This document shows, in pieces, positions 12,715-63,374 of a stretch of 64,000 nucleotides of DNA (position 1 is its first letter; every line of letters starts with the position of its first letter). Position numbers and translations under genes: made by a program. The notes under the pieces were generated by a model. That model saw nothing but the letters and a program-made list of their open reading frames with translations. It made no database searches and was not told the origin of the DNA. This DNA comes from Candidatus Saccharimonadota bacterium (GTDB taxonomy: Bacteria; Patescibacteriota; Saccharimonadia; Saccharimonadales; SZUA-47). The stretch lies in contig CP065013.1 of the NCBI GenBank assembly GCA_016700315.1, positions 65,449 through 129,448 of the forward strand. The letters are read 5' to 3'.

Positions 12715-13155
12715 TTATGCTTCGTGAGGTAATTTTACGCCACTTTGTTTGGCGAGCTCAATAACTAGATTATAAATCTCTATCACTCTACCCTTTTGGG
12801 TTTTACTCTTAAAACTAGGCGTCGGCATATTTGCCATAGAATATAACTCTTTGATATCTGTTTCGATAGCAGCCAATCTACCTTCAACTCGGGTGAGCCT
12901 ATCAACAACATCACGTTGCGTTGATTCCATGCTAACCATGCGGGTTTCTAAGCCGTCCATGCGATTGTCCAAACCGTCCATGTGGGTTTCTAGACCGTCC
13001 ATGCGGGTTTCTAAGCCGTCCATGCGGGTTTCTAGACCACCGAACCTCTCATCTACTTTATCAAACCTGTCTGTAACTTCATTCGCAAAATTACCGATCA
13101 TATCTGTTAGCTGATCGATCTTTTTATCCAGGACTGTAAATTCATTAGACTTCAT
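12715..13155 (-). CDS. coiled-coil protein with five tandem MDGLETR-type heptads
   Basis: The ORF track starts at a TTG (13173); the first ATG is at 13155 (MKSNEFTVLDKK). The repeat reads GGLETRMDGLETRMDGLETHMDGLDNRMDGLETRM. Confidence 0.55.
   Translation of the reverse strand: MKSNEFTVLDKKIDQLTDMIGNFANEVTDRFDKVDERFGGLETRMDGLETRMDGLETHMDGLDNRMDGLETRMVSMESTQRDVVDRLTRVEGRLAAIETDIKELYSMANMPTPSFKSKTQKGRVIEIYNLVIELAKQSGVKLPHEA
12937..13041 (-). repeat. 5 x 21-nt tandem repeat inside the CDS
   Basis: The units on the + strand are catgcgggtttctaagccgtc, catgcgattgtccaaaccgtc, catgtgggtttctagaccgtc, catgcgggtttctaagccgtc and catgcgggtttctagaccacc. Confidence 0.9.
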
Positions 13156-13226
13156 ACTAACATTATAAATCAATCATGCGTACGAGGTTGCAGTATCTTT
13201 TACTTAAAAAACGGCAAAATCACAAC

Positions 13227-15316: not shown

Positions 15317-15388
15317 AAACCCCTTCTGCTCCCACGCTTATGGATATATTTTACACATTGCTCCGACAATAGACAAGAGAAATAAGAA

Positions 15389-15836
15389 GGCTTAAGGTTA
15401 TTGGTTAGACTGACTGGGAACCAAGGTCTAGGAGCTACGGACCCGGGTCTAGTAGCTAGCAAGTATTACCCCGTACTGCCTACCGCTCAAGTAGAGTCAA
15501 GAGTCAAGAGTCATGAACCAAGAGCTAGGGACTCGAATCTAGGGTCTAGGGACTAGGGACGAGTTTATAGTTTATAGTTGATGGTTTATAAAAGAGCAAT
15601 GATTAGGTTATAGGTTAGAGGTTAGAGTTTAGAGTGATTAGTAGGACTACGGTCTAGGGTCCAGGGACTAGGGTCTATTATAGAATTTAGAGCTTAGAAT
15701 TTAGAATTTTACGCTTGCTACTTACTACTAACTACTCGCTACTATCTCTGGGCTTATACTTTATACATAATACTTAATACTATCTAGAGCTTAGATTTTC
15801 TATCCCCTCGTTCATCGTCCGCCTTCGGTGGGCTTG
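15389..15836. repeat. mosaic of phase-locked heptanucleotide tandem repeats
   Basis: Manual phasing gives 58 consecutive 7-mers (15389-15794) in one register, in blocks of related units (gagtcaa x3, tagggtc/cagggac, tttatag, ggttaga, gaattta, ctactaa, ttaatac). Confidence 0.85.
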
Positions 15837-17051
15837 CTACTTTAGCGCACTGAAAGCTGCATCCAACTGCGGATCCAGTTTGGCTTTTATGTCATCAAGG
15901 CTGCGCTTAACTTCTTGGTCTGGTTTTATGCCTTCTTTGTCGATATTTTTATCTGACGGCGTATACCAACGAGCAATCGTGACCTTAAGTGTGCCACCAC
16001 TCTTTAGGGGGATAACCTGCTGCACACTGCCTTTACCATAGGACTTCACACCAATTAGAGTTGCCTTGCCGTTATCTTTTAGTGCTCCAGCCGTAATCTC
16101 GCTAGCGCTGGCGCTACCTTCATTGATCAGTACAACAGTCTTTGCATCTTTAAACTTCTGATTGCCGCTGGCCTTGAGGGTTTGTATAACTTTACTACCC
16201 TGTTTTTCCATAAGCACAGTCTGGCCTTTATCAAGCCACAGACTAGATAGCGCAACCGCTGCATTCAGTGAGCCACCTGGATCGTTACGTAAATCTAGTA
16301 CGATCTTTTTGATACCTTTTTGGTTAAAATCATCTGCAGCTTTTTCGGCCAAACTCGCGGTGTCATCCCAAAAACGAGAAACAGTTATTATGCCGACATC
16401 GCCTTTGATCTCAGACTTTACGCTAGGAATGTTAATTTGAGCACGAGTAATATCGAAGCTCAGTGCTTCGGTTTCCCCGCGCACGATTCCTAGCTTCACT
16501 TTCGTACCTTCTTTACCTCTGATTTTGTCTACGGCTTGGCTAACGCTTAAGCCTGCGGCCGACTGGTCATCTATGCTAGCAATTACGTCTTTAGGCAGTA
16601 AGCCTGCCTTCGAAGCTGGACTATCTGCAATCGGAGAAATAACTACGAGTTTTTCGCCATCTTTACCAAGCTCAGCCCCGATCCCACTGAATGTACCGCT
16701 AAGCTCTTGATTAAACTCTTTGCTGCCTTCTTCGTTAAAATATTCGGTGTAAGGATCACCTGTTGCCTGAGCTAGGCCTATTTTAATACCGTCAATTAGC
16801 TTATTTGTGTCTAGTTCACCATCGTAATTTTCTTTCAACTCAGAATAGAGCTCATCAACACTTGAGAAATCTAGCTCTTTTGGCGTAGTGCTTACGGCTA
16901 CTTTTTTTGTACCATCTAGACTAATGCGACCGCTGCCAATACCCCAGCCTGCAAAAAACAAGCCAGAAGCCAAAATCAAGGTCAGTGCTAGTTTTCCGTA
17001 TTTGGTTTTGTTGTTAGCTCGCTTAGCAAAAGCGTCTTCGCTATTTTCCAA
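15837..17051 (-). CDS. ctpA: S41 family carboxy-terminal processing protease with PDZ domain
   Basis: 404 aa with an N-terminal TM anchor and a PDZ domain (SPIADSPASKAGLLPKDVIASID). The S41 core reads LINEGSASASEI, KSYGKGS. Confidence 0.85.
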   Translation of the reverse strand: MENSEDAFAKRANNKTKYGKLALTLILASGLFFAGWGIGSGRISLDGTKKVAVSTTPKELDFSSVDELYSELKENYDGELDTNKLIDGIKIGLAQATGDPYTEYFNEEGSKEFNQELSGTFSGIGAELGKDGEKLVVISPIADSPASKAGLLPKDVIASIDDQSAAGLSVSQAVDKIRGKEGTKVKLGIVRGETEALSFDITRAQINIPSVKSEIKGDVGIITVSRFWDDTASLAEKAADDFNQKGIKKIVLDLRNDPGGSLNAAVALSSLWLDKGQTVLMEKQGSKVIQTLKASGNQKFKDAKTVVLINEGSASASEITAGALKDNGKATLIGVKSYGKGSVQQVIPLKSGGTLKVTIARWYTPSDKNIDKEGIKPDQEVKRSLDDIKAKLDPQLDAAFSALK

Positions 17052-27696: not shown

Positions 27697-29004
27697 TTAT
27701 AGAACTTCCCTTCCGCCCATATAGGGCCTTAATACTTCTGGCACGATTAATTTGCCGTCAGAGGTTTGATAATTTTCGATAATTGCCACTAGGGGACGCA
27801 TGGATAAGGCCGTAGCATCGTTAGTATAAACAAGCTCAGTTTCACCACTACTACGCCGCACTTTGGTCTGGAGGCGGCGGGCCTGATAGTCTGTCATGTA
27901 ATCGGCGGTATGGGTTTCGCGGTATTTATTTTGGGTTGGAATCCAGGCCTCTATGTCGACAGCTTTAGCATCAGGCTTGCCTATGTCGAAAGTACACTTT
28001 TCTAATATGTGATAAGGCAGGTTAAGTTGCTGCATCAGGTATTCTTGAATGGCTACCATAAATAAGTGTTCGCTTAACCCATCTTCAGCTACCGTTAAAG
28101 ATTCCATTTCCAGCTTATCGAATTGATGCATACGGATTATGCCCTCCATATCCTTGCCGTAGGTCCCTGCTTCGCGCCTAAAACTTGTGGCATAACCTAG
28201 GTAGCGAATTGGCAGGTCTGCCTCGGCAAGAATTTCGTCGGCGTGCATACTACCAAGCACGTGTTCGGCGCTGCCCTGCAGCCACAGCTCATCACCTTCA
28301 ATTTTGTAGCGTTCTTCTTGTGGCTCTAGTCGATCCATCTTGTCGTAGATTTCGGTTTTTAAAAGGTGCGGCGGCAACACCAAAGTAAATGGCTTACTAC
28401 TCACTTTAAGGCTTGCACTTTCTGCGATACTGCTAAGTTGAGTTTCATCGGTTAAGATGTCGCTAGCAAACTGCAAAAGTGCCCAGTGAAGTTTTACTAA
28501 ATCGCCCTTAATATAAGCAAATCGTGCACCCGTAACTTTGGCAGCGCGCTCTTTGTCAAGCCAGCCTCTATTTTCGGCAAAAACTGCGTGATTCAACGGT
28601 TGAAAATCGAACTGTCTTTTTTGCCCCCAAACTTTTACCTCAAGATTCTCGTCTTCGCTTGCGCCAACCGGCACTGAATCGAGCGGCATGTTTGGTACCT
28701 GCTTTAAAAGCTGCGTTAGATTTTGCTCGATGCTGTTTAAATAATTCTCCTTTTCTGCAAGCTCGATCTTAAGATTTTTGCCCTCTTCTATTAAGGCTTG
28801 GTCTGGCTTACCACCGCCAACCGACTGCTTCATTCGTTCGGTTAGTTCGTTGCGCTTTGCGCGAAGCGCCTCAACAACTTGCAACAACTCACGACGTGAT
28901 TTATCAAGCTCTAAGATTTTCGGCACATCAACTTCGTAGCCTTTTTGCTTTGATTTTTCAGCAACAAGATCGGGATTATCCCTGAGTATTTGTATATCAA
29001 TCAT
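27697..29004 (-). CDS. serS: serine--tRNA ligase
   Basis: 435 aa with an N-terminal coiled-coil arm and class II motifs (FRREAG, RMHQFDKLE, TNDATALS). Confidence 0.9.
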   Translation of the reverse strand: MIDIQILRDNPDLVAEKSKQKGYEVDVPKILELDKSRRELLQVVEALRAKRNELTERMKQSVGGGKPDQALIEEGKNLKIELAEKENYLNSIEQNLTQLLKQVPNMPLDSVPVGASEDENLEVKVWGQKRQFDFQPLNHAVFAENRGWLDKERAAKVTGARFAYIKGDLVKLHWALLQFASDILTDETQLSSIAESASLKVSSKPFTLVLPPHLLKTEIYDKMDRLEPQEERYKIEGDELWLQGSAEHVLGSMHADEILAEADLPIRYLGYATSFRREAGTYGKDMEGIIRMHQFDKLEMESLTVAEDGLSEHLFMVAIQEYLMQQLNLPYHILEKCTFDIGKPDAKAVDIEAWIPTQNKYRETHTADYMTDYQARRLQTKVRRSSGETELVYTNDATALSMRPLVAIIENYQTSDGKLIVPEVLRPYMGGREVL

Positions 29005-39763: not shown

Positions 39764-41266
39764 TTAAAGTACCAGTTTTTCTAAGCGAGCTTTTATAGAG
39801 CCTTCGTGACGGCCAAACTGCTGGCTCAATTGCCGGAATGTTTTGCCTTTTGAGTTTAGTTTGAGCAGTTTTTGGTCATCTTGCCCTGTCCATGGAGTAT
39901 AGGCATTCGGATACTCAAGTCTCATCTTGGCAAGTTTTTCTGCCCAAGTTCCGCCTGATTTAGTCTTTTTGAGCTTCTTTTGAGCACATGCTTTTTCCCA
40001 TGCGCTCTCTAGGGTTTTATACAAAGCGTCATTTTGGAGAGATGATTTTCGTAATTGTTTATCGATTTCCTGCGCACGCTCATTCATTGTTAGGGCCGTC
40101 CTGTTAAGCCCACCAAGACTCAAACTATCCAGCGACCTAACACGACTGATCGCTACGTAACCCATGCCCGGGACAAAGGCCTTTGATAGATCAATGTGCG
40201 CAGAGTCCAGGGTCATACCCTGGCTTTTGTGAATGGTGATCGCCCAGGCTAAGCGCAGCGGGATCTGACTAATGCTAGCTATCTTTTTTTCACCGTCTCT
40301 TAGTTCCCATGTTTCGTAGTCGGCAACTACTTGCTTACTGTTTTTGATTCTGACTATTGGCAATCCCGAATCTTCTTCAAAACCGACCACCTCGCCAAGC
40401 GTACCATTAACATATTTTTGCTCTTGGCTGTTTTTGACGAACATCACAAATGCACCCTCTTTAAGTTTCAAAACTTCTGGCGCTAGGCAACTTTTTTTGA
40501 GCGTAGCTACGCCCGTTTTGCGCCCACTTGAGTTCATAAAAAACTCATGTTCTTCACCCTCCACTGCGCCGAGCTTAGCGTTATTTATTACATCTACATT
40601 TATATTGTGAGTGTAGAGTTCTGTTGTCCCCTCCGGTAATTCAGTGCTTAAACGTCTATTCATTAGCGCCTCAACATGACGACGACGTAAATCATTCTCA
40701 CGAAAGGCCGTCAGAATTTCACTAAGCATGTCGTCGTTCTGACGATGCTGTTCCTCCAGATAACAAACTATTGGATCAAGCTCTTGCCATGAAAAACTAT
40801 CAAAAATAAAATCACCCTGCCTACTACCATCTCGGTTAATAGGTGGTAATTGGAAAAAGTCACCGCTCAGCACAACCTGCAAACCACCAAACGGTGAATC
40901 GTTTTCTCGAACCAATCTACAAACCTTTTCCACCATATCTAGCCTAAAATCATGAAGCATAGAAACTTCGTCGATGATCAAAATGTCGGAGGTTTGGATT
41001 TGTGCCTTTCGGCTCTTACTCATCGATTCGATCTGCCCTTTATTAAGTTCATCAGCGATACCAATACCCGCCCAGGAGTGTATCGTGTTTCCTCCAAGAT
41101 GAGTTGCAGCAAGGCCTGTGCTCGCGGTAACGGCTACTTTCTTTCCATTGGCCCTCGCCCACTTAACAAACTCGTTAAGAACGTACGTTTTTCCGCTACC
41201 TGCGGGCCCAGTCAAAAAAACAGAATTACCTTCACTCAAAATCCCCAGAGCCATAGCTTGCTTCAT
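39764..41266 (-). CDS. Pif1/RecD-like ATP-dependent DNA helicase with a C-terminal HTH-like tail
   Basis: 500 aa. It has Walker A LTGPAGSGKTY and the motifs ILIIDEVSML, VLSGDFFQLPP and ITIHKSQG. Confidence 0.8.
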   Translation of the reverse strand: MKQAMALGILSEGNSVFLTGPAGSGKTYVLNEFVKWARANGKKVAVTASTGLAATHLGGNTIHSWAGIGIADELNKGQIESMSKSRKAQIQTSDILIIDEVSMLHDFRLDMVEKVCRLVRENDSPFGGLQVVLSGDFFQLPPINRDGSRQGDFIFDSFSWQELDPIVCYLEEQHRQNDDMLSEILTAFRENDLRRRHVEALMNRRLSTELPEGTTELYTHNINVDVINNAKLGAVEGEEHEFFMNSSGRKTGVATLKKSCLAPEVLKLKEGAFVMFVKNSQEQKYVNGTLGEVVGFEEDSGLPIVRIKNSKQVVADYETWELRDGEKKIASISQIPLRLAWAITIHKSQGMTLDSAHIDLSKAFVPGMGYVAISRVRSLDSLSLGGLNRTALTMNERAQEIDKQLRKSSLQNDALYKTLESAWEKACAQKKLKKTKSGGTWAEKLAKMRLEYPNAYTPWTGQDDQKLLKLNSKGKTFRQLSQQFGRHEGSIKARLEKLVL

Positions 41267-41365: not shown

Positions 41366-41378
41366 AGCTTTCTGATGT

Positions 41379-41762
41379 CTAGATACTGGAGGTGTGTGAT
41401 TTAAACCAAGCAGCTATTTCGGGAATATCCGCTTTCGAGAAGGCTATATGAACCGCAAAATCTTCTAGTTCTTTAGGCATAGCATTTAACAGATGGCCAT
41501 TCTGCATCATAAACAAAGCAGCACAAGTGATACCTGTTCTTTTGTTCCCATCAACAAAAAGATGATCAGAAATAACGATACGCGCGTAAACCGCAGCTTT
41601 TTCGAAAACTCCATTGTACTGCTCTTGCCCGAAAACGCTTTGTTGTGGTGCAGCTATAACCGAAAACAGACTTCTCTCATCACGAACACCATGACTTCCG
41701 CCATAGTCTTCAATTAGCTGAAAATGTATCAACAGAATATCTTCTGTACTAAGATACTTCAC
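41379..41762 (-). CDS. doc: Doc (death-on-curing) toxin, Fic superfamily
   Basis: 127 aa. The Doc motif reads HLFVDGNKRTG. Confidence 0.8.
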   Translation of the reverse strand: MKYLSTEDILLIHFQLIEDYGGSHGVRDERSLFSVIAAPQQSVFGQEQYNGVFEKAAVYARIVISDHLFVDGNKRTGITCAALFMMQNGHLLNAMPKELEDFAVHIAFSKADIPEIAAWFKSHTSSI

Positions 41763-41764
41763 TA

Positions 41765-41980
41765 TTATCTACCTGCTAGATTTTTGAGCGCCTGGCCGTA
41801 TTGCTGTTTAAATTTTTTGTAGTTTAGTGCTACTTCATTAGCAGGCGCTTCTAGCTTTTTAAATGTAACACTAACTTCATCGCCCGGTTTTAGGTTGAGG
41901 CTTTTGAGGTTTTTTGCAGGTATCGTGACTCCTGCGGATGTGCCAATTTTTATAATTTTTTGGATTGTTGTTACTGTCAT
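41765..41980 (-). CDS. AbrB/MazE/SpoVT-type antitoxin
   Basis: 71 aa. IKIGTSAGVTIPAKNLKSLNLKPGDEVSV is a swapped-hairpin barrel pattern. It lies 2 nt upstream of doc. Confidence 0.7.
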   Translation of the reverse strand: MTVTTIQKIIKIGTSAGVTIPAKNLKSLNLKPGDEVSVTFKKLEAPANEVALNYKKFKQQYGQALKNLAGR

Positions 41981-42244: not shown

Positions 42245-43759
42245 CTAAAATTTCAGTTCTGAGTAGATAGACTTTGTTACGTCGTCTATTTCGTGGCGCA
42301 TTTGTGGGAACGGCACACCCTCACGGGCCGAAACACCTTCAAAAATCCAAAAAACACGTTCAGAAAAGCCAAGCCCACAAGTTGGCGGCATGCCATATTC
42401 GAGCATTTCGACGTAATCAATATCAAGCATTTGAGCTTCTGCATCGCCGCTGGCGCGCATCGCTTCTTGTTCTAGGAAGCGATTTAACTGATCAATTGGG
42501 TCATTAAGCTCAGAATAGCCGTTGCACAATTCGCTGCCAGCAATCACTGCCTGAAAACGCTGCACAGTATCGGGATTTTCAAGATTAGTTTTTGCAAGCG
42601 GACTAATAAATAACGGCGTATTGATTAGCCAAGCTGGCCCCGCCACACCTGCCCTGATTCGTTTCCAAAGCTTGTCGATAGACCGCGGAATATTATCGGT
42701 TTTTTCGACCTCAAGTTTGTGTTCTTTTAATGCTTTTTGGACCTGCTCCAACGTACAATCAAAAACATCTATACCGTACTCGGCTTTGATAACACTTGCG
42801 TAATCGAGTTTGGCCCATGGTTTTGCAAAATCGACCTCGAAACCACGAAGGTTGAACTTCTTGGTTCCAAAAGTTTTTTCTAGCACAAAGCTAAACATGT
42901 CTTCCATCAGCTGCATACCATCTTGCCAGCTAGCGTAAGCCCAATACCATTCCATTGCGATATGCTCTGGCAGATGCTCTTCTGTATAATTTTCGTTTCT
43001 AAAACGCGGCCCGATATCGTAGACTTTTTCGTAACCGCCGCCTATCAATCTTTTAAGTGGCAGCTCATGACTAATGCGTAAATAAAAATCCTGATCCAGC
43101 GCATCCATGTGAGTAACAAATGGGTTCGCGTCAGCCCCGCCAGTTGTGTGCTCAAGTACTGGGATGTTTACTTCCAAAAACCCACGCTCATTCATAAAAT
43201 CTCTGGTAGCCTGCCAAAACTTACTACGCCTAATGTATCGCTGTTTTACTTCATCATTGACATTGGTATCTATGTATCTACGACGTAGGCGCTGTTCTTT
43301 GTCAGTAAAACCCTCCTGACGTGTTGGCATCGGCCTCAAAGCTTTGGAAAGCAAGCGCATAGTTTTTACTTCGACCGATATTTCGCCGGTCTGGGTTCTA
43401 ACCACTTCGCCTCTAGCCTCAACGAAATCGCCACTGTCGAGCAGTGGTAATTCTTCTGGCACTGCCAGCTCGCTATCAGCCCGTTTCGGGTTGCCAGATT
43501 GGTTATCCGCCTTAACAAAAAGCTGCAGTTCACCACTAGCATCTTTTATGACCACGAACGCTATTTTGCCAAACTTACGGATTGAGACTATGCGACCAAC
43601 CACACCGACCGTCGCACCTTCTAGCTGGTCGAAGTCATTCAATATCTGCCCTAAATTGTGTGTACGATTAGAATCTGCCGGGTATGGGTTTATGCCAAGC
43701 TTTCTCAGCTCTTCAAGTTTGCGCAGTCGCTCATCACGAAAATCTTTTAGTGTTGCCAT
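42245..43759 (-). CDS. lysS: lysine--tRNA ligase (class II)
   Basis: 504 aa with an N-terminal OB anticodon-binding domain and class II core motifs (FRNENYTEEHLPE, GLGFSERV). Confidence 0.9.
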   Translation of the reverse strand: MATLKDFRDERLRKLEELRKLGINPYPADSNRTHNLGQILNDFDQLEGATVGVVGRIVSIRKFGKIAFVVIKDASGELQLFVKADNQSGNPKRADSELAVPEELPLLDSGDFVEARGEVVRTQTGEISVEVKTMRLLSKALRPMPTRQEGFTDKEQRLRRRYIDTNVNDEVKQRYIRRSKFWQATRDFMNERGFLEVNIPVLEHTTGGADANPFVTHMDALDQDFYLRISHELPLKRLIGGGYEKVYDIGPRFRNENYTEEHLPEHIAMEWYWAYASWQDGMQLMEDMFSFVLEKTFGTKKFNLRGFEVDFAKPWAKLDYASVIKAEYGIDVFDCTLEQVQKALKEHKLEVEKTDNIPRSIDKLWKRIRAGVAGPAWLINTPLFISPLAKTNLENPDTVQRFQAVIAGSELCNGYSELNDPIDQLNRFLEQEAMRASGDAEAQMLDIDYVEMLEYGMPPTCGLGFSERVFWIFEGVSAREGVPFPQMRHEIDDVTKSIYSELKF

Positions 43760-43856
43760 ATGTAATTGATTATAGATTATAGATTATAGAATTCCGAATT
43801 TTGTGGGACCATTAAGTTGCACTGACCCAAATAGACATAAAATCTACCCGCAGCGA

Positions 43857-43960
43857 ACTACTACTAACTACTAACTACTAACTACTAACTACTAACTACT
43901 AACTACTAACTACTAACTACTAACTACTAACTACTAACTACTAACTACTAACTACTAACT
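43857..43960. repeat. (CTACTAA)14 perfect heptamer array abutting the greA stop codon
   Basis: I counted 14 consecutive perfect copies at 43861-43958, plus a degenerate copy on the lysS-proximal (low-coordinate) side. On the transcribed minus strand the unit is TTAGTAG. Confidence 0.95.
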
Positions 43961-44421
43961 TATGATATTTCAGCTACTTTGTAACTATCAATGCCTGCCG
44001 GCGTCTTGATTTCTACTTGGTCGCCAACTTTTTTACCGATTAATGCCTGGCCAATTGGCGATTCATCGCTAATTTTACCTTTAAGAGGGTCAGCTTCAAC
44101 TGTGCCTACTACCTGGAACTCTTTCGCCTTACCGTCGTCGCTCTTGAGCTTCACGTTACTACCCATGGCAACTTTGTTATCGCCTTTGGGTTTTGCAATC
44201 ACTTCAACATTTAGAAGTATATTTTCAATATCAGAAATTCTGCCTTCGGCTTTGTTCTGCTCTTCACGCGCTGAGCTATACTCAGCATTCTCGGCCAAAT
44301 CACCAAATTCACGAGCGGTCTTTATACGCTCGGCTACCGCCGTTCGCTGACTCTTAAGTAGTTCTAGCTCTTTCTCAAGTTCGGCCACCCCTTCTTTGGT
44401 CAAGTGAAACTGCTTTTTCAT
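43960..44421 (-). CDS. greA: transcription elongation factor GreA
   Basis: 153 aa. AREFGDLAENAEYSSAREEQ lies in the coiled-coil finger, followed by the C-terminal FKBP-like domain. Confidence 0.9.
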   Translation of the reverse strand: MKKQFHLTKEGVAELEKELELLKSQRTAVAERIKTAREFGDLAENAEYSSAREEQNKAEGRISDIENILLNVEVIAKPKGDNKVAMGSNVKLKSDDGKAKEFQVVGTVEADPLKGKISDESPIGQALIGKKVGDQVEIKTPAGIDSYKVAEIS

Positions 44422-47781: not shown

Positions 47782-48030
47782 CTAAAAATTACGATACGTT
47801 TGATCGTCTCGTCTGGAGAGCTCTAAAATAATGACAGTGCCTGTTGTTTTCTTGCTAAAAATAATTCGAATTTGGCCTTTTCGAACTCTATAAATATCTT
47901 TGTGGCCTTTTAAAGGTTTTACGTCAAGATTGTCCAACTGATCATTACGAATGTCTAGAAGCAAAGACTCGAAAAGTTCAAATTCTTTGCGGGATAGTTT
48001 ATTTAGAAACTTTTCGATCTTATCGGCCAT
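47782..48030 (-). CDS. RelE/ParE family toxin
   Basis: I start at the internal ATG (MADKIEKFLNKL), 82 aa. LKGHKDIYRVRKGQIRIIFSKK...ILELSRRDDQTY matches the RelE pattern. It overlaps the antitoxin gene by 11 nt. Confidence 0.7.
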   Translation of the reverse strand: MADKIEKFLNKLSRKEFELFESLLLDIRNDQLDNLDVKPLKGHKDIYRVRKGQIRIIFSKKTTGTVIILELSRRDDQTYRNF

Positions 48031-48298
48031 ACTTATCAGGATTATCTCGCTTGACCTTTTCCATAGCACCCAATATATCTTTGATCTCCACACCTTCGTG
48101 GTTGACCTTGGTAAAATCTATTACTGTTTGCCAGACTTCTTCCTCGACAGGCACAATACGAAAAACTGCTTCGCTTTTTCGCCGCACCAAATAACTTTGG
48201 CCACTTCGAACTGCCTCAACAACCTCGTCTGCATTTAGCCTTAGCTGTCTTAAGCCTATTTCTCGTACTTTTTTTGGGTTAGATTCAATAATTTTCAT
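48020..48298 (-). CDS. Phd/YefM-like antitoxin
   Basis: 92 aa, immediately upstream of and overlapping the RelE-like gene. Confidence 0.6.
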   Translation of the reverse strand: MKIIESNPKKVREIGLRQLRLNADEVVEAVRSGQSYLVRRKSEAVFRIVPVEEEVWQTVIDFTKVNHEGVEIKDILGAMEKVKRDNPDKYGR

Positions 48299-48305
48299 AT
48301 CCTAA

Positions 48306-48327
48306 GTTTAACAAATGTTTAACAAAT
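48306..48327. promoter_or_regulatory. 2 x 11-nt direct repeat just upstream of the antitoxin start (possible operator)
   Basis: gtttaacaaat gtttaacaaat on the + strand, which is ATTTGTTAAAC x2 on the coding strand. It lies 8 nt from the start codon. Confidence 0.3.
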
Positions 48328-48384
48328 CTGTCAAATTACTAGTTTATCTTACTTTAGAATTTAGGATTTAGTACTTAGAATTTA

Positions 48385-50545: not shown

Positions 50546-50629
50546 AAAAAATCCTTTCAGTAAATTTTAGTTGTTGGTAGATAGAAGATGGTAGATGGTA
50601 GCTCTCAACTACCAAATACTAACTACTGC

Positions 50630-51510: not shown

Positions 51511-53280
51511 TCAATACTCTTTGTGCAACTTTTGGCGGTTCCAAAGCTTGGCGTAAAGCCCGTTTTTCGTAAGCAAAGCTTCATGACTGCCTTCTTCTAT
51601 AATCCTACCTTTGTCAACCACTATGATGCGGTCCATGTGAGAAAGTGTACTCAAACGGTGGGCCACTACAATGGCTGTTTTACCCTTAAATATTTCAACA
51701 AATGAGTCCTTTATAATCTGCTCACTCTCACTATCGAGCGCGCTGGTGGCTTCGTCAAAAACGACAATTGGTGTATTTTGTAGTACAGCGCGCGCGATCG
51801 CTACACGCTGCTTCTGGCCGCCGCTAAGTTTTACTCCTCTCTCGCCAACTACACTTTGATAACCCAGTGGTAGCACGTCTATGAACTCTGCGGCGTGCGC
51901 AGCTTTAGCAGCCTTTTTGACTTTATCCACCGAGGCATCAGGCTGACCGATCAAGATATTGTTGAGAATTGTATCGTGAAAAAGTAGCGGTTCTTGAGCC
52001 ACGTAAGCAACTTGCGAGCGTAGATCTTTTTGGAGCAAACTCCGAACATCAAAGCCATCAATCAAAACACTGCCTTCTTGCACATCTTCAAAGCGCATGA
52101 GTAGCTTTGTTAGTGTACTTTTGCCAGCACCACTTATACCAACAACACCCAACTTTTCTCCACGCTTTATTTTGAGATTGAATTTATCAAAAACCTTCGC
52201 AGCACCAGGCTCATAGGCAAAAGTCACATCAGAGAAGTCAATATCTCCTTTTATCCGCCCTACTGTTGCCGGTTCCGCCGGGTCGGTAACTGTGCTTTTA
52301 TAAGAGTATACCTCAAGCGCTGGCAAAATTTTGTCTACATAATCATCATGTTCTTCTACTTTGTCCGACAATTCATAAATAGCTGTCATAATCGACAAGC
52401 TGTAAGCCGCCATCAACACAGCTTCGGCCACACCGATCGCCCCACTTTTCATTCGTGAAACGGTGAGAAGAAATGTCAACAGAAAGAACACAACCGTTAT
52501 ACCTTCACGTATTAGAGCTAGTTTGGCCTGCTTGATATAACGAGTTGTAAATAGTTTAGTTTCACGCTGCAACTTGACTTTCAAATCTTCCGACTTGGAG
52601 TCTTCCTGCGCTGTTGAACGTACCGCCAAGATATTAGAAATAGTGTCTGAAATGAAGCCAGAGCCTAGCCTGTATTGTTCACGTGACTCGCTACGTAGAC
52701 TAGATAAGGCATTAGAAGCCCAAAACAAGTAGACTATCTGAACGCCAGCAAGGATAGCGGTCGCCAAACCCAGTGGAATATCATAGTAAGCTATAACCCC
52801 CACCGGCATGACGATAGCCATGACGGCGTTGATATATTTATCTCGCAAACTCCTCTCAAGATTCAAGGTATTATCAGAAAATTGCCTGACAGAAGTCGTA
52901 AGGTAGCCTGCCATGTTGTCGTTAAAAAACTTCATGTCAGTCGACAGCAGTTTGGCGAAGTAGTCCTTTACGGCAGATGCATATATTCGGTTTTCGTCTC
53001 TCAGTGACAAAAACTTGGTTGCAGGGTTAAGAAGCCCAAGCAGTGCAGAAAAGATTGCATACATAAAGCTAAACTTAACTGCGGCCGCAAAATCATACCG
53101 CGACAAGTGATAGACAATGCGACTAACCATAATTGGGAGCATTATCAGTTTACAAACCCTACTCAACATCAAAGTCAGATACGAAGCACGGACTTTCCAA
53201 CTCTGACCATAAGTAGACCACAGCAAGCCGTAAACAAGCCGATAATCAGCTAGTGCTTTCTTTTTTCCCATTGAATTCAT
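51511..53280 (-). CDS. ABC exporter, fused permease/ATPase (MsbA-like type I exporter)
   Basis: 589 aa with a six-TM N-terminal half. It has Walker A GISGAGKST, signature LSGGQKQR and Walker B VVFDEATS. Confidence 0.85.
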   Translation of the reverse strand: MNSMGKKKALADYRLVYGLLWSTYGQSWKVRASYLTLMLSRVCKLIMLPIMVSRIVYHLSRYDFAAAVKFSFMYAIFSALLGLLNPATKFLSLRDENRIYASAVKDYFAKLLSTDMKFFNDNMAGYLTTSVRQFSDNTLNLERSLRDKYINAVMAIVMPVGVIAYYDIPLGLATAILAGVQIVYLFWASNALSSLRSESREQYRLGSGFISDTISNILAVRSTAQEDSKSEDLKVKLQRETKLFTTRYIKQAKLALIREGITVVFFLLTFLLTVSRMKSGAIGVAEAVLMAAYSLSIMTAIYELSDKVEEHDDYVDKILPALEVYSYKSTVTDPAEPATVGRIKGDIDFSDVTFAYEPGAAKVFDKFNLKIKRGEKLGVVGISGAGKSTLTKLLMRFEDVQEGSVLIDGFDVRSLLQKDLRSQVAYVAQEPLLFHDTILNNILIGQPDASVDKVKKAAKAAHAAEFIDVLPLGYQSVVGERGVKLSGGQKQRVAIARAVLQNTPIVVFDEATSALDSESEQIIKDSFVEIFKGKTAIVVAHRLSTLSHMDRIIVVDKGRIIEEGSHEALLTKNGLYAKLWNRQKLHKEY

Positions 53281-53355: not shown

Positions 53356-53694
53356 ATGAAAAAAGATATCCACCCGACCAATTATCAGTTTGTTGTTTTC
53401 GAAGATTTGAACGACGGCACGCGCTTTTTGACACGCGCATGTGTTGCCAGTGAGGAAACAACTAAATGGGAAGATGGCAACACCTACCCATTAGTTAAAG
53501 TGCACATTTCAAGCTCTTCTCACCCATTCTTCACTGGTCAAGAGAAGCTAATCGACATCGAAGGCCGCGTTGACAAGTTTGAAGCTCGCCGCAAAGCCGC
53601 CGAAGAAGCCCGCAAAGCCGCTGCCGCTCGTGTCAGCAAGGCAGATAAAAAAGCTGCGAAAGCCGAAAAAGACGAATCCAAGAAAATAGGTTAG
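53356..53694 (+). CDS. rpmE: 50S ribosomal protein L31 (type B, no CxxC) with a Lys/Ala-rich C-terminal extension
   Basis: First ATG at 53356. [21 protein letters not shown]...HPFFTG matches the L31 pattern. Confidence 0.85.
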
Positions 53695-53717
53695 AGGTTA
53701 TAGGTTAGAGGTTATAG
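53689..53717. repeat. heptamer tract ggttaga ggttata ggttaga ggttata overlapping the rpmE stop
   Basis: Read directly from the sequence. An inverted, imperfect copy lies inside prfA at 54318-54348. Confidence 0.85.
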
Positions 53718-55443: not shown

Positions 55444-56292
55444 ATGACTATTAAAAGATGGATTTTAGATAGTACTCTATTATTAAGCCCCTACTCCGCT
55501 ACCGCAAGATTAGACTGCGAGGTATTGCTAGCGCACGTTTTAGACAAAGATAGAGTTTGGCTGCTGGCTCACCCAGAGCACGTTCTTCAAGGACAGTCCC
55601 TGAAAAGAGTAGATCGGTATTTGCAGCGCCGTAAATCTCAGGAACCGATCGCTTACATAATCGGCCACAGTGAATTTTATGGGCGTGAGTTTGAGGTTTC
55701 GGCTGATACTCTGCAGCCGCGCCCGGAAACAGAGACCATGGTTGAGCTTCTTCTCGACACAATAAACAGTAAACAGTTGTCGGTAAACAGTATTGTTGAT
55801 GTTGGCACTGGATCTGGCGCAATTATTATCTCTGCATTCCTAGAGCTCTCTATCAACCATAAACTATCAACTATCAACTTCCATGCTACCGACATCAGCC
55901 CAGCTGCTTTAGAAATCGCCCGTCAAAACGCTAAGAGGTACGATGCTGATATCAAATTCTATCAAGGAGATTTACTAGGTCCCCTACTATCTACTATCTA
56001 CCATCTACCATCTGCCATAATTCTGGCTAATCTGCCCTATGTGCCAGACAGCCACACAATCAATCAAGCCGCCATGCACGAACCAAAACACGCTATTTTC
56101 GGCGGCACTGATGGCCTCGATTTGTATAGAACTATGTTCGACCAACTATCAACTATCAACTATCAACTATCAACTATCCTGTTTACAGAATCTTTACCTC
56201 CGCAGCATAAAGAATTAGCTCGGATTGCCGAACAAGCTGGCTTCAAGCAAATTGCCGAACAAGACTTTATCCAAGTTTTCGAAAAAAAGTAA
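55444..56292 (+). CDS. prmC: release-factor glutamine methyltransferase PrmC-like, with heptamer-encoded segments and NLPY in place of NPPY
   Basis: EPIAYIIGHSEFYGREFEV, LQPRPETE and motif I VDVGTGSGAI are present. Motif IV reads ANLPYV. I start at the ATG at 55444; the track starts at a TTG, 55417. Confidence 0.7.
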   Translation: MTIKRWILDSTLLLSPYSATARLDCEVLLAHVLDKDRVWLLAHPEHVLQGQSLKRVDRYLQRRKSQEPIAYIIGHSEFYGREFEVSADTLQPRPETETMVELLLDTINSKQLSVNSIVDVGTGSGAIIISAFLELSINHKLSTINFHATDISPAALEIARQNAKRYDADIKFYQGDLLGPLLSTIYHLPSAIILANLPYVPDSHTINQAAMHEPKHAIFGGTDGLDLYRTMFDQLSTINYQLSTILFTESLPPQHKELARIAEQAGFKQIAEQDFIQVFEKK

Positions 56293-56316
56293 TACTTTTT
56301 GTGTATAATTGCAATA

Positions 56317-56919
56317 ATGAATGTCGGGATTAGTAAAACTCAACGTACTGAGCTGGACACGATGTCTAGCCCAGAAGTATTAGGCAGATATTTTGAAAGT
56401 CTTCAGCAAGTAGCACGGCAAGGAGAAGCCATACGCGAAGAGGTAACAGACGGAGAAATCGAAGGAGCGTACACAGCTGGGTGGTCTTTAGGCAATCTAC
56501 GCTTTATTGAGGGCAAAGACCCTATCGAATCGGCCGATTTAGACCCAGTTACTATAACTAATGCCAAGTTTTTCAGAGCTCAGACTAGACTAGAAAGTTA
56601 TATTAACAACCGTTTTTTGGGCAGTATGGTGCAAGTAATACCACTCGATCAAGAAATTGTAGCAGCAAGAGCACCCTGGGGGACACTGTCTGTTGTGCCA
56701 CACTTTCTGAGGGGTGGTGAGACGAGACTTAATCATGCAAGATTACTAGCATTTGGGACTTCATCAAATGGCCGAACGGTGTTGTCTGTTGTAACAAGAC
56801 GAGGCTTACCTTCTATTACCCACTATATGAACATCGTTGGACCTGACGGTCCCAAAATCAGCATTAGTGTTAGAGATGACAAAAAACGCATGTCAGCAAA
56901 ATCTATATCCAGACTTTAG
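56317..56919 (+). CDS. hypothetical protein
   Basis: First ATG at 56317, with TATAAT at 56304-56309 just upstream. No recognised domain. Confidence 0.45.
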   Translation: MNVGISKTQRTELDTMSSPEVLGRYFESLQQVARQGEAIREEVTDGEIEGAYTAGWSLGNLRFIEGKDPIESADLDPVTITNAKFFRAQTRLESYINNRFLGSMVQVIPLDQEIVAARAPWGTLSVVPHFLRGGETRLNHARLLAFGTSSNGRTVLSVVTRRGLPSITHYMNIVGPDGPKISISVRDDKKRMSAKSISRL

Positions 56920-61607: not shown

Positions 61608-63374
61608 TTAACGAGACGCTAAAAATACCTTGTTTGAATCAAGTGACCTATTTAAGACTTCGGCTGAGGTGAGCCTAGCGAAGTTGGCATAGCCGCCGAT
61701 GTGAGCTAGGTTAGTTAGACCTTCGGCTGAGGTGAGCCTATCGAAGTAGGCATCGCCGCCGATGTGAGCTAGGTTAGTTAGACCTTCGGCTGAGGTGAGC
61801 CTATCGAAGTAGGCATCGCCGCCGATGTGAGCTAGGTTAGTTAGACCTTCGGCTGAGGTGAGCCTAGCGAAGTTGGCATAGCCGCCGATGTGAGCTAGGT
61901 TAGTTAGACCTTCGGCTGAGGTGAGCCTAGCGAAGTTGGCATAGCCGCCGATATGAGCTAGGTTAGTTAGACCTTCGGCTGAGGTGAGCCTATCGAAGTT
62001 GGCATAGCTGCCGATGTGAGCTAGGTTTGTTAGACCTTCGGCTGAGGTGAGCCTATCGAAGTAGGCATCGCCGCCGATGTGAGCTAGGTTAGTTAGACCT
62101 TCGGCTGAGGTGAGCCTATCGAAGTTGGCATCGCCGCCGATGTGAGCTAGGTTAGTTAGACCTTCGGCTGAGTTGAGCCTAGCGAAGTTGGCATAGCCGT
62201 TTATCGTTCTAACTCCTTCAAGTATTAGAGCAAGAAGCTCGTTACTATTACCAAAGTAATTAACATCTACATTTGAATTATTGATTATGTCTGCTAAATT
62301 ACTTGGCCGACTAGATAGATCGTATTCGTCACTGAAACTAAGGCTGCCAAACAATACGTCTGACGCATCGAGATTTGCTAGCTTTTCCAGTTCGACCAGC
62401 TGACCCTGCCGCGTGAGTAACGTGTTTTCTGGTAGTTTAATATCCAGCACTTTAGGAGGCTTTTCATCTCTCGCAAGCTTGCTCATTAGTACCCCCAGAC
62501 CAGCAAAAACCTCCTCCCAATTTTGGCCACCAACAACCACAGCTTTATTGTCGCTAGTCTTGATCTGCTTTATGCTGTGGCTTGCAACGACATATTCGAT
62601 AGAATAGTGCTGACTAGAAGCATCAGCCTGATTTACTCGTATCGAGAAGAACCTTGCTTTGCCAACTTCAAGAGCTTTAGAGTAGGAGGTAGACGTACCG
62701 ATACAGTGACCGGTTACAACCGACTCTTGGGCTAAATGTTCTTTAGTAGTAAGCTCTACAAGACTGAATGAGTCACTTTCGTGGATTAAGCTAGGTTCGG
62801 CACCTTCGGCGTTGGCGGCATTGCGCCTAGCTTCGGCAATCCTTTGCTCGGTTACCGCATTGTGGCGTGCTATAAGCTTGCCTATGCCACCGTTATTTTT
62901 GGCTGCTTTCGGAGCAGTGGCTGGGGCGATGCAACCTAAAGTTTCAGAACTCAGCTCAGTCAAAGGAACTTTGAACCACTCAACTACGCTTGCTCGTTTT
63001 TTGGCGATGCTCTTGCTGGTGGCAGCAGGATTGCTTACATAGGCTAGTAGCCCTTCGATTATGGAGTCGGCTATAGTTGAAGAATCGGCTACATCCTCAT
63101 TTGCCTGACTACCGTCAAGGACTGATTCGATAAAGTACTGCGCAATTTTATGAGCTAGCAGCCTTCTACGCTCACCTTTTGTTTCTCCGTTATTATCTGA
63201 GCCTAGGAACTCACCAACATATGTCATATTGCGCTGCGCAGTGTACTCTACGAGTTGGTCGCGCTCAGCCAGTGTCCCAACTACTTCATCTGTAAGTTTT
63301 TCAACCGAACCTAGGAATGCTAACTGCTCAGGGGTCAAAGCTTCGATTGATGGCAATATGGATGTCATGGTCAT
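61608..63374 (-). CDS. PcfJ-like domain protein fused to a C-terminal array of 21-aa leucine-rich repeats
   Basis: 588 aa. The central segment LAQESVVTGHCIGTSTSYSKALEVGKARFFSIRV...HYSIEYVV..IKQIKTSDNKAV fits my memory of the PcfJ-like motif. The C-terminus has 8 full LTSAEGLTNLAHIGGxAxFxR units. Confidence 0.6.
   Translation of the reverse strand: MTMTSILPSIEALTPEQLAFLGSVEKLTDEVVGTLAERDQLVEYTAQRNMTYVGEFLGSDNNGETKGERRRLLAHKIAQYFIESVLDGSQANEDVADSSTIADSIIEGLLAYVSNPAATSKSIAKKRASVVEWFKVPLTELSSETLGCIAPATAPKAAKNNGGIGKLIARHNAVTEQRIAEARRNAANAEGAEPSLIHESDSFSLVELTTKEHLAQESVVTGHCIGTSTSYSKALEVGKARFFSIRVNQADASSQHYSIEYVVASHSIKQIKTSDNKAVVVGGQNWEEVFAGLGVLMSKLARDEKPPKVLDIKLPENTLLTRQGQLVELEKLANLDASDVLFGSLSFSDEYDLSSRPSNLADIINNSNVDVNYFGNSNELLALILEGVRTINGYANFARLNSAEGLTNLAHIGGDANFDRLTSAEGLTNLAHIGGDAYFDRLTSAEGLTNLAHIGSYANFDRLTSAEGLTNLAHIGGYANFARLTSAEGLTNLAHIGGYANFARLTSAEGLTNLAHIGGDAYFDRLTSAEGLTNLAHIGGDAYFDRLTSAEGLTNLAHIGGYANFARLTSAEVLNRSLDSNKVFLASR
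61659..62205 (-). repeat. about 8.7 x 63-nt near-identical tandem repeat (coding LRR units)
   Basis: The unit start ttcggctgagg recurs at 61659, 61722, 61785, 61848, 61911, 61974, 62037, 62100 and 62163, an exact 63-nt spacing. Confidence 0.9.

Follow-up and report, generated by a model that had tools for sequence, protein, structure and literature searches.

The greA-lysS spacer

This study concerns a tandem heptanucleotide array in the 200-nt spacer (43760-43959) between greA and lysS of a Candidatus Saccharimonadota bacterium (Saccharimonadales, Patescibacteria; GenBank assembly GCA_016700315.1, contig CP065013.1, positions 65,449 to 129,448 of the forward strand). The whole stretch of 64,000 nucleotides is called the window; all positions are those of the window unless a contig is named, and counts and repeat statistics given for the window refer to these 64 kb of genome. 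Relatives are those of a set of 80, unless another set is named; single relatives and contigs are designated by L numbers. Features are listed in Table 1.

The spacer holds two perfect heptamer repeats. The longer, CTACTAA on the forward strand and TTAGTAG on the gene strand, forms a perfect period-7 run at 43860-43960 (101 bp, 14.4 copies, 100% matches, score 202); the 14 perfect units ascribed to it in an earlier note on this DNA were found again by Tandem Repeats Finder, by a scan for exact runs and by reading of the sequence. A perfect run of 101 bp cannot arise by chance. One base separates the array from the greA stop codon (43960-43962), and the array edge lies 101 nt from the lysS ATG. 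The shorter repeat, GATTATA, is the triplet that the note had placed at 43767-87 beside lysS; the triplet is real, with 3.3 perfect copies, and its position was one base off. Together the two repeats cover 124 of the 200 nt and leave 69 nt of unique sequence between them (43791-43859), so that the statement that they fill the whole spacer was too strong. The presence of stop codons in all three frames of both strands, to which the note had drawn attention, was confirmed (longest open stretch, 5-6 codons), yet it is automatic, because any 7-nt unit with a stop triplet has this effect, 7 and 3 sharing no factor. The greA stop codon is TAA in the window and TAG in other strains; one nearby single-nucleotide polymorphism segregates too.

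A promoter and terminator scan of 43760-43960 gave no terminator-like site on the gene strand; the sole hairpin is weak and A+U-rich, and the G+C-rich hairpin with U tract expected of an intrinsic terminator of greA was not present on the gene strand of the spacer. Folding of the RNA of 43750-43975 (226 nt) was no better than that of shuffled sequence (z = +0.97; unique part, z = -0.41), and no Rfam match was obtained with permissive thresholds on 43600-44100 or with gathering thresholds on the whole window. A riboswitch, a T-box, a hairpin like that of the hmw loci (see below) and a terminator were rejected, because the spacer folds no better than shuffled sequence. No -10-like hexamer occurs within the CTACTAA array on either strand. 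A promoter-like TTGATA-18-TATCAT at the greA 3' end was set aside and not relied on as a promoter, because the number of scan hits (4 found; 1.6 +/- 1.3 expected) is within chance expectation and the site is not conserved, the sequence holding it differing among the relatives inspected.

Copy number among strains and relatives

Contigs of the same species were gathered by exact-protein look-ups (GreA, LysS, ProS and a Fic protein) in ENA, JGI, NCBI and Logan assemblies and match the window at 99.2-99.97% identity in the flanks. The array is spanned with 6, 8, 10, 14 and 15 units, and one further contig holds at least 16. Between the 15-unit contig L223 and the window there are 16 substitutions in 5 kb and a difference of exactly one unit; between L223 and the 10-unit contig L220 the difference is five units. 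Because copy number varies among near-identical strains, the array is a real variable-number tandem repeat. Both the variation in natural populations and the very recent expansion that the note had proposed are thereby supported; a copy number fixed in all populations, which it had named as the finding that would speak against it, was not encountered among the same-species contigs. The copy numbers 6, 8, 10, 14 and 15 are not separated by multiples of three units (21 bp, two helical turns), and there is consequently no sign of a face-of-helix constraint between the elements that flank the array.

We hold it to be extremely improbable that the long array, or its differences in copy number, were made by the assemblers. 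Short-read assemblies are known to break at perfect tandem repeats or to collapse them; many contigs from Logan and JGI end within this array, and two scaffolds have N gaps inside it. Nevertheless, none of the examined assemblies of the species, be they from ENA, JGI, NCBI or Logan, lacks the array at this position; assemblies of two independent samples (ERZ28613422 and ERZ15185498) give an identical 6-unit allele, in linkage with a structural variant and the TAG stop codon; and each spanned allele, those of 10, 14 and 15 units included, is bounded by unique flanks.

The structural variant consists of about 440 bp of extra sequence that separates the array from the lysS promoter region. In the 6-unit strains (L081, L091, L222; region 3463-4063 of L081) the array is followed by this segment, which contains a 10-bp GC-rich hairpin with a T-run and an intact 99-codon gene, orf99. 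No Pfam family was found for orf99; weak homologues stand at the same position in four other species (L004, L019, L029, L043). The window strain has lost most of orf99 together with the hairpin, since only the last 12 codons of orf99 remain. The deletion edge is the end of the array, and the deleted alleles carry 8 to at least 16 units, compared with 6 in the allele that bears orf99. No TTAGTAG array was found at the other end of the orf99 segment.

By its LysS the window belongs to Saccharimonadales (TM7, Patescibacteria); the best match among species-representative genomes has 76% amino-acid identity. The order greA-lysS, with both genes on one strand, is kept in most of the 80 relatives; the spacer is mostly about 25-100 bp long, and no long TTAGTAG array was seen in the relatives' greA-lysS spacers inspected. 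The closest relative, L001, has a single TTAGTAG in a spacer of 59 bp, which is a plausible seed for the array. Because most relatives have short spacers and those inspected have no long array, the 101-bp array is, on this comparison, a recent expansion specific to the lineage.

A metagenome scan with a pattern of the greA end plus the array gave no match. A second scan, with (TTAGTAG)5, returned at least 120 contigs with a G+C content of 0.27-0.60; none was recognised as this species, the only match to a query protein being a distant lysS of 27% identity (L109), and the scan therefore shows only that the unit is widespread.

The TATAAT triplet and the putative lysS promoter

On the gene strand, lysS is preceded by TATAATC TATAATC TATAATC AATTACAT ATG, that is, by three tandem perfect -10 hexamers, the proximal one ending 10 nt ahead of the ATG; no Shine-Dalgarno sequence was found before this ATG. 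A hexamer that matches TATAAT at five or more of six positions ends at -8 to -11 from the lysS ATG in 50 of the 80 relatives (with the TG of an extended -10 in 22 of these 50), and no other single position upstream of lysS has more than three TATAAT-like hits in the set. The triplet thus has what marks a sigma-70-type -10 element, a TATAAT-like hexamer at a conserved distance from the gene start. It is present in three copies in all 17 same-species loci that include it (about 12 distinct contigs). A search by hand for a -35 hexamer for each of the three boxes gave matches of 3/6 at best, none of them convincing. Because the -10 position near the ATG is kept in relatives and the triplet coincides with it, lysS probably has its own promoter here, giving a leaderless mRNA or one with a leader of 2-4 nt, and the GATTATA triplet is probably the functionally important part of the spacer. 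The same -10 layout is found at other genes of the window: prmC (TACAAT), the gene starting at 29004 (TATAAT) and the gene starting at 41378 (TATACT).

Tandem heptamers stand at the same place before lysS in several close relatives: CTGTAAA arrays in L002, L011, L022 and L034; CCTAGAA x3.4 in L047; CCTATAT x2 in L001. The CTGTAAA and CTGTTTA heptamers of L002, L011, L022, L034 and L009, partly inverted (GTAAAC/GTTTAC), lie 30-40 nt upstream of lysS; they could be repeated -10 elements or an operator-like site.

With the -10 box next to the lysS ATG, the array lies outside the likely promoter, which in the window is about 100-200 bp downstream of the 14 units. The array would enter a lysS transcript only by read-through from greA, and no terminator was found between the two genes in the window. 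These points bear on the suggestion of the earlier note that the array is a strong candidate for phase variation of lysS expression or of greA 3' end formation. As an expression rheostat on the model of hmw1A, the unit number would tune lysS through a read-through intercistronic leader, or would act on 3'-end formation or mRNA stability of greA. The true difference in copy number between strains is consistent with this, as are the lack of a gene-strand terminator in the window (the allele with orf99 having the GC-rich hairpin and T-run), the TTGATA-18-TATCAT at the greA 3' end, which would transcribe through the array, and the fact that heptamer rheostats are documented (PMC12721329). We nevertheless regard such a role as unlikely. 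The conserved -10 position is downstream of the array; translation from an internal start codon of a read-through transcript would probably be poor when no Shine-Dalgarno sequence precedes it; neither a hairpin nor a sequence to pair with is present for the array RNA, in contrast to the 5' untranslated region of hmw; the TTGATA-18-TATCAT has the shortcomings given above; equivalent arrays stand at many unrelated loci; and both genes beside the array are housekeeping genes, not contingency genes with surface, host-interaction or restriction-modification functions. The evidence supports variation in copy number but not a phase variation that regulates lysS or greA, given a likely promoter downstream of the array, no RNA structure, housekeeping neighbours and a heptamer bias of the genome as a whole.

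Period-7 bias across the window

No repeat period other than 7 is in excess in the window. Perfect runs of at least three units occur in the window at period 7 only (none at periods 4-6 or 8-12); perfect runs of at least 17 bp number nine at period 7, two at period 6 and none at periods 4, 5 and 8-12. The density of period-7 runs is 14 per 100 kb in the window and 0.9 per 100 kb in the 80 relatives. Autocorrelation of the intergenic sequence, with the greA-lysS spacer excluded, is raised at lags 7, 14 and 21 (z = 6.4, 4.9 and 3.7, respectively); of the relatives, the 30 closest show a faint trace of this period-7 signal and the remaining 50 show none. The greA-lysS array is one instance of a genome-wide heptamer bias and not a device specific to its locus.

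Four genes have an array of the TTAGTAG type at their 3' end or a short distance beyond it: greA, rpsB, the S41 peptidase gene and, in other strains, prmC. In all four cases TTAGTAG is on the sense strand. The UAG-rich, C-free sense RNA (UUAGUAG)n directly after stop codons might be a functional 3'-end module with a specific sequence: a translational stop pad for all frames, a landing site for a protein that binds RNA or DNA, or, on the antisense strand (CUACUAA, with 29% C and without G), a site at which Rho is loaded and keeps antisense transcription out of greA. The single orientation at these 3' ends, the recurrence of unit families above chance (see below) and the occurrence of at least five TTAGTAG units in at least 120 metagenome contigs of very different G+C content agree with such a module. 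We consider it improbable, however: four of four in one orientation is weak statistics; at the slot after frr the units differ between strains (TAAATTC in the window, TTGATAG in others), which indicates that the slot matters and not the sequence; the number of units is free to vary (6 to at least 16); a spacer of about 25-100 bp with no long array suffices in most relatives; and no binding protein or RNA family is known for it.

Other heptamer arrays and strain-variable cassettes

Further heptamer arrays of the window are included in Table 1. The 520-bp spacer between the CTP synthase and S41 peptidase genes contains a TTAGTAG-type array (15714-15744). In the rpsB-tsf spacer, the TTAGTAG-like units and the inverted CTACCAT units could form a long hairpin. 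The three arrays inside prmC are loop insertions relative to Thermotoga maritima HemK. In two same-species contigs (L242 and L243, 4361-5137) the CAACTAT array of prmC has four units instead of five, and this 7-bp loss causes a frameshift that cuts PrmC to 258 amino acids; the allele may reflect either on/off variation driven by a simple sequence repeat (SSR) or decay of the gene. In-frame arrays in prmC and a frameshift by one unit are what is expected from a blind mutational process filtered by selection.

Three cassettes vary among strains. The first is the orf99 segment. The second is a cassette of about 640 bp with a ParE-like gene in the spacer between frr and the M50 protease gene (window, 47782-48384); L220 and L223 (1425-1557) have no cassette after frr and carry TTGATAG x4 in the slot of the TAAATTC-type array, and L226 (170-1510) has an unrelated 446-amino-acid gene there and no heptamer array at the frr stop, which heptamer arrays abut in the window and in the L220/L223 alleles. 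The third is a gene of 206 amino acids after prmC (56299-56919), which is missing in several strains and replaced by a spacer of 331 bp (L240, 5225-5555) that consists almost entirely of back-to-back heptamer arrays (TTAGTAG-, TAAATCC-, GTATTAT- and TCAGTAA-type), resembling those at 15680-15790 of the window; an exact-protein look-up for this gene gave no record. Look-ups around 15837-17051 and 51511-53280 returned only short contigs ending at heptamer arrays, with no informative variation.

All three cassettes border heptamer arrays. Dispersed arrays might mark or mediate the insertion and deletion of small cassettes, the greA-lysS array being a scar or substrate of the orf99 deletion. This would fit the longer arrays of the orf99-deleted alleles and a contig of a metagenome-assembled genome (L090) that joins the array to unrelated sequence. 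We think it very unlikely all the same: the segment has no TTAGTAG array at its other end, so that the deletion was not a recombination of array with array; arrays are also present in spacers with no known polymorphism; the sample is three cases; and the L090 junction may be an assembly chimera.

At that junction (L090/L231, 1-32; GCA_041909835.1, contig JAYRSA010000004.1), 32 nt that are absent from the window run straight into eight TTAGTAG units; L225, which ends inside the array, belongs to the same metagenome-assembled genome as L090. The junction is either an assembly chimera or a real rearrangement.

Some other repeats and neighbouring genes were noted. At 53686-53717, directly upstream of a gene for a protein of the 23S-rRNA-intervening-sequence type, the 14-bp unit ATAGGTTAGAGGTT, equal to two heptamers, is present in 2.3 perfect copies; it contains a GAGG Shine-Dalgarno-like motif, and the species' Logan contigs break there. 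At 12936-13038 (gene 12715-13173, reverse strand), a 21-bp repeat (21 = 3 x 7) of 4.9 copies lies inside the gene for a predicted coiled-coil protein of 152 amino acids. At 61658-62199 (gene 61608-63374, reverse strand), a 63-bp repeat of 8.6 copies, 96% identical, encodes 21-residue repeats (LTSAEGLTNLAHIGGDAYFDR) at the C-terminus of a 588-amino-acid protein with a weak PcfJ-like match. Immediately after lysS come genes for a MazE-like antitoxin paired with a Fic/Doc toxin and for a PIF1-family helicase (41379-41980 and 39764-41266); the helicase has 496 instead of 500 amino acids in some strains, and others lack the antitoxin call.

Table 1 Features of the greA-lysS locus, copy-number alleles of its array, and other heptamer arrays of the window.
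Feature	Position in window, or contig	Strand	Remarks
lysS, class II lysyl-tRNA synthetase, 504 amino acids	42245-43759	-	Pfam tRNA-synt_2 and tRNA_anti-codon
(TATAATC)3.3	43768-43790	-	GATTATA on + strand; perfect copies; Tandem Repeats Finder and exact-run scan
orf99 remnant, last 12 codons and stop	43812-43850	-	tblastn 12/12 identity at 43850-43815
(TTAGTAG)14, heptanucleotide variable-number tandem repeat	43861-43958	-	CTACTAA on + strand; perfect units
greA, 153 amino acids	43960-44421	-	Pfam GreA_GreB_N and GreA_GreB
Array allele, 6 units	L081/L222 and L091		two samples; allele retains extra segment of about 440 bp
Array allele, 8 units	L082
Array allele, 10 units	L220
Array allele, 14 units	window
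Array allele, 15 units	L223
Array allele, at least 16 units	L225		contig stops inside array
Spacer of at least nine different back-to-back, partly decayed heptamer arrays, 520 bp	15317-15836	-	between CTP synthase gene and S41 peptidase gene
TAAATTC-type array	48353-48384	-	flush with frr stop codon
rpsB-tsf spacer, (NNNGTAG)x4 then inverted (CTACCAT)x4	50546-50629	-	first array flush with rpsB stop
Three in-frame heptamer arrays in prmC	55850-55879, 55984-56018, 56143-56178	+	gene 55444-56292

Comparison with known heptamer systems

Heptanucleotide repeats are over-represented in many bacterial genomes, for which polymerase slippage has been proposed, and loops of seven bases are a favoured slippage size in many bacteria (Mrazek et al. 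2007, in the account given in PMC4679880 and PMC4692102). The greA-lysS array is like the prokaryotic heptanucleotide long SSRs, as far as that account describes them, in its tandem 7-nt units, its length beyond chance, the period-7 excess around it, the mainly intergenic siting and the length that differs between close relatives; copy number is polymorphic among strains, as in that class. What differs from those described there is that the arrays of the window are in Saccharimonadales (Patescibacteria) and also stand in frame inside the essential-type gene prmC. Searches of the literature in a limited library gave no paper on heptamer repeats in Saccharibacteria.

Dispersed heptamer families are classic in cyanobacteria (short tandemly repeated repetitive sequences, STRR) and in Xanthomonas, with GGGGA(T/C)T and GGGAATC arrays in Nostoc and Xanthomonas (PMC4692102). 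Multiple dispersed intergenic families, different units side by side, some inverted pairs and strain variation are common to these and to the arrays of the window, where the same families also recur at many loci; by contrast, the units of the window are A+T-rich and rich in TAG and TAA, cannot form a G-quadruplex, share no unit sequence with those families and belong to another phylum (PMC4692102). Neither a cyanobacterial host nor the canonical units are thus found, the host being a member of Saccharimonadales and the units TTAGTAG, TATAATC, AGGTTAG and others.

TAACTGA direct repeats are known from marine Beggiatoaceae, Cyanobacteria and Bacteroidetes; in Beggiatoaceae a single unit dominates, with 2-6 copies immediately before start codons (PMC4679880). 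They resemble the array in being stop-containing, intergenic heptamers at genes without a Shine-Dalgarno sequence, and the register TAACTAC of the array matches TAACTGA at five of seven positions; in the window, however, there are many unit families, and the array abuts the stop of the upstream gene about 100 bp from the next start (PMC4679880), so that neither the unit TAACTGA nor short sets directly upstream of starts are what is seen here. In the Haemophilus influenzae genes hmw1A and hmw2A, the SSR (ATCTTTC)n in the 5' untranslated region pairs with a G-rich arm in a hairpin that is cleaved by RNase III, and controls an adhesin (PMC12721329, PMC8262952). A perfect 7-bp SSR upstream of a gene, with a copy number that varies among strains, is shared with these loci, whereas here a hairpin is absent, the array stands upstream of the likely promoter and both neighbours have housekeeping functions (PMC12721329, PMC8262952); of the marks of a phase-variable locus, the array shows the SSR of variable copy number and lacks both a regulatory RNA structure with a partner and a gene of the contingency type. 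The array is a heptanucleotide long SSR that behaves like STRR; it shares neither the RNA structure of the hmw type nor the unit and position of the TAACTGA type, and probably not the position of the hmw type.

Origin and role of the array

The explanation that we favour, and consider likely, is that the array is a hypermutable heptanucleotide SSR made by replication slippage, of nearly neutral length and with no sequence-specific task for greA or lysS. Units would be gained and lost through slipped-strand mispairing during replication; the array would persist because it sits where the spacer is under the weakest constraint, between the greA stop and the promoter of lysS; lysS would be transcribed from the fixed triple TATAAT beside its ATG, giving the leaderless or nearly leaderless mRNA described above; and the length polymorphism would be neutral or nearly so for both genes.

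Several observations weigh against this explanation. Among 24 period-7 arrays of the window there are six pairs of identical family, compared with about 0.5 expected (P ~0.001), and families recur at unlinked loci (AGGTTAG x3, AAATTCT x2, CTACCAT x2, CTATCAA x2), which pure local slippage alone does not explain. The sense-oriented TTAGTAG-type arrays at or near the four gene 3' ends named above could hint at a 3'-end function, and the array may influence the level of lysS or greA expression. Perfect repeats are liable to be miscounted by short-read assemblers, so that individual copy numbers may be imprecise. In a wider scheme, the arrays would be a dispersed, family-structured system like the cyanobacterial STRR, actively generated or spread and favouring post-stop sites and cassette junctions, where they would either help small genes to be gained and lost or serve as UAG-rich 3'-end modules in sense orientation; the greA-lysS array would be one such module, re-expanded after the loss of orf99. 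We give this scheme a low probability only, and slippage with nearly neutral length remains the explanation that we prefer.

Significance

No new regulatory mechanism is revealed by the array. What the analysis adds is the copy-number series, the reinterpretation of the GATTATA triplet as a probable promoter element, the orf99 deletion and the prmC frameshift allele. A perfect array of variable length also explains why assemblies of the species break at the greA-lysS spacer, and the array is a ready-made strain marker for the species in metagenomes. For annotation, lysS and apparently several other genes use a -10 box 7-11 nt before the start without a Shine-Dalgarno sequence, and would give leaderless or nearly leaderless mRNAs. 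For the biology of the group, an ultrasmall, reduced genome of the Patescibacteria is seen to share the heptamer bias of cyanobacteria, Xanthomonas, Burkholderia and Beggiatoaceae; in this genome the bias visibly builds intergenic DNA, triplicates the -10 box of a probable promoter, and inserts into the essential-type gene prmC, which in some strains it frameshifts.

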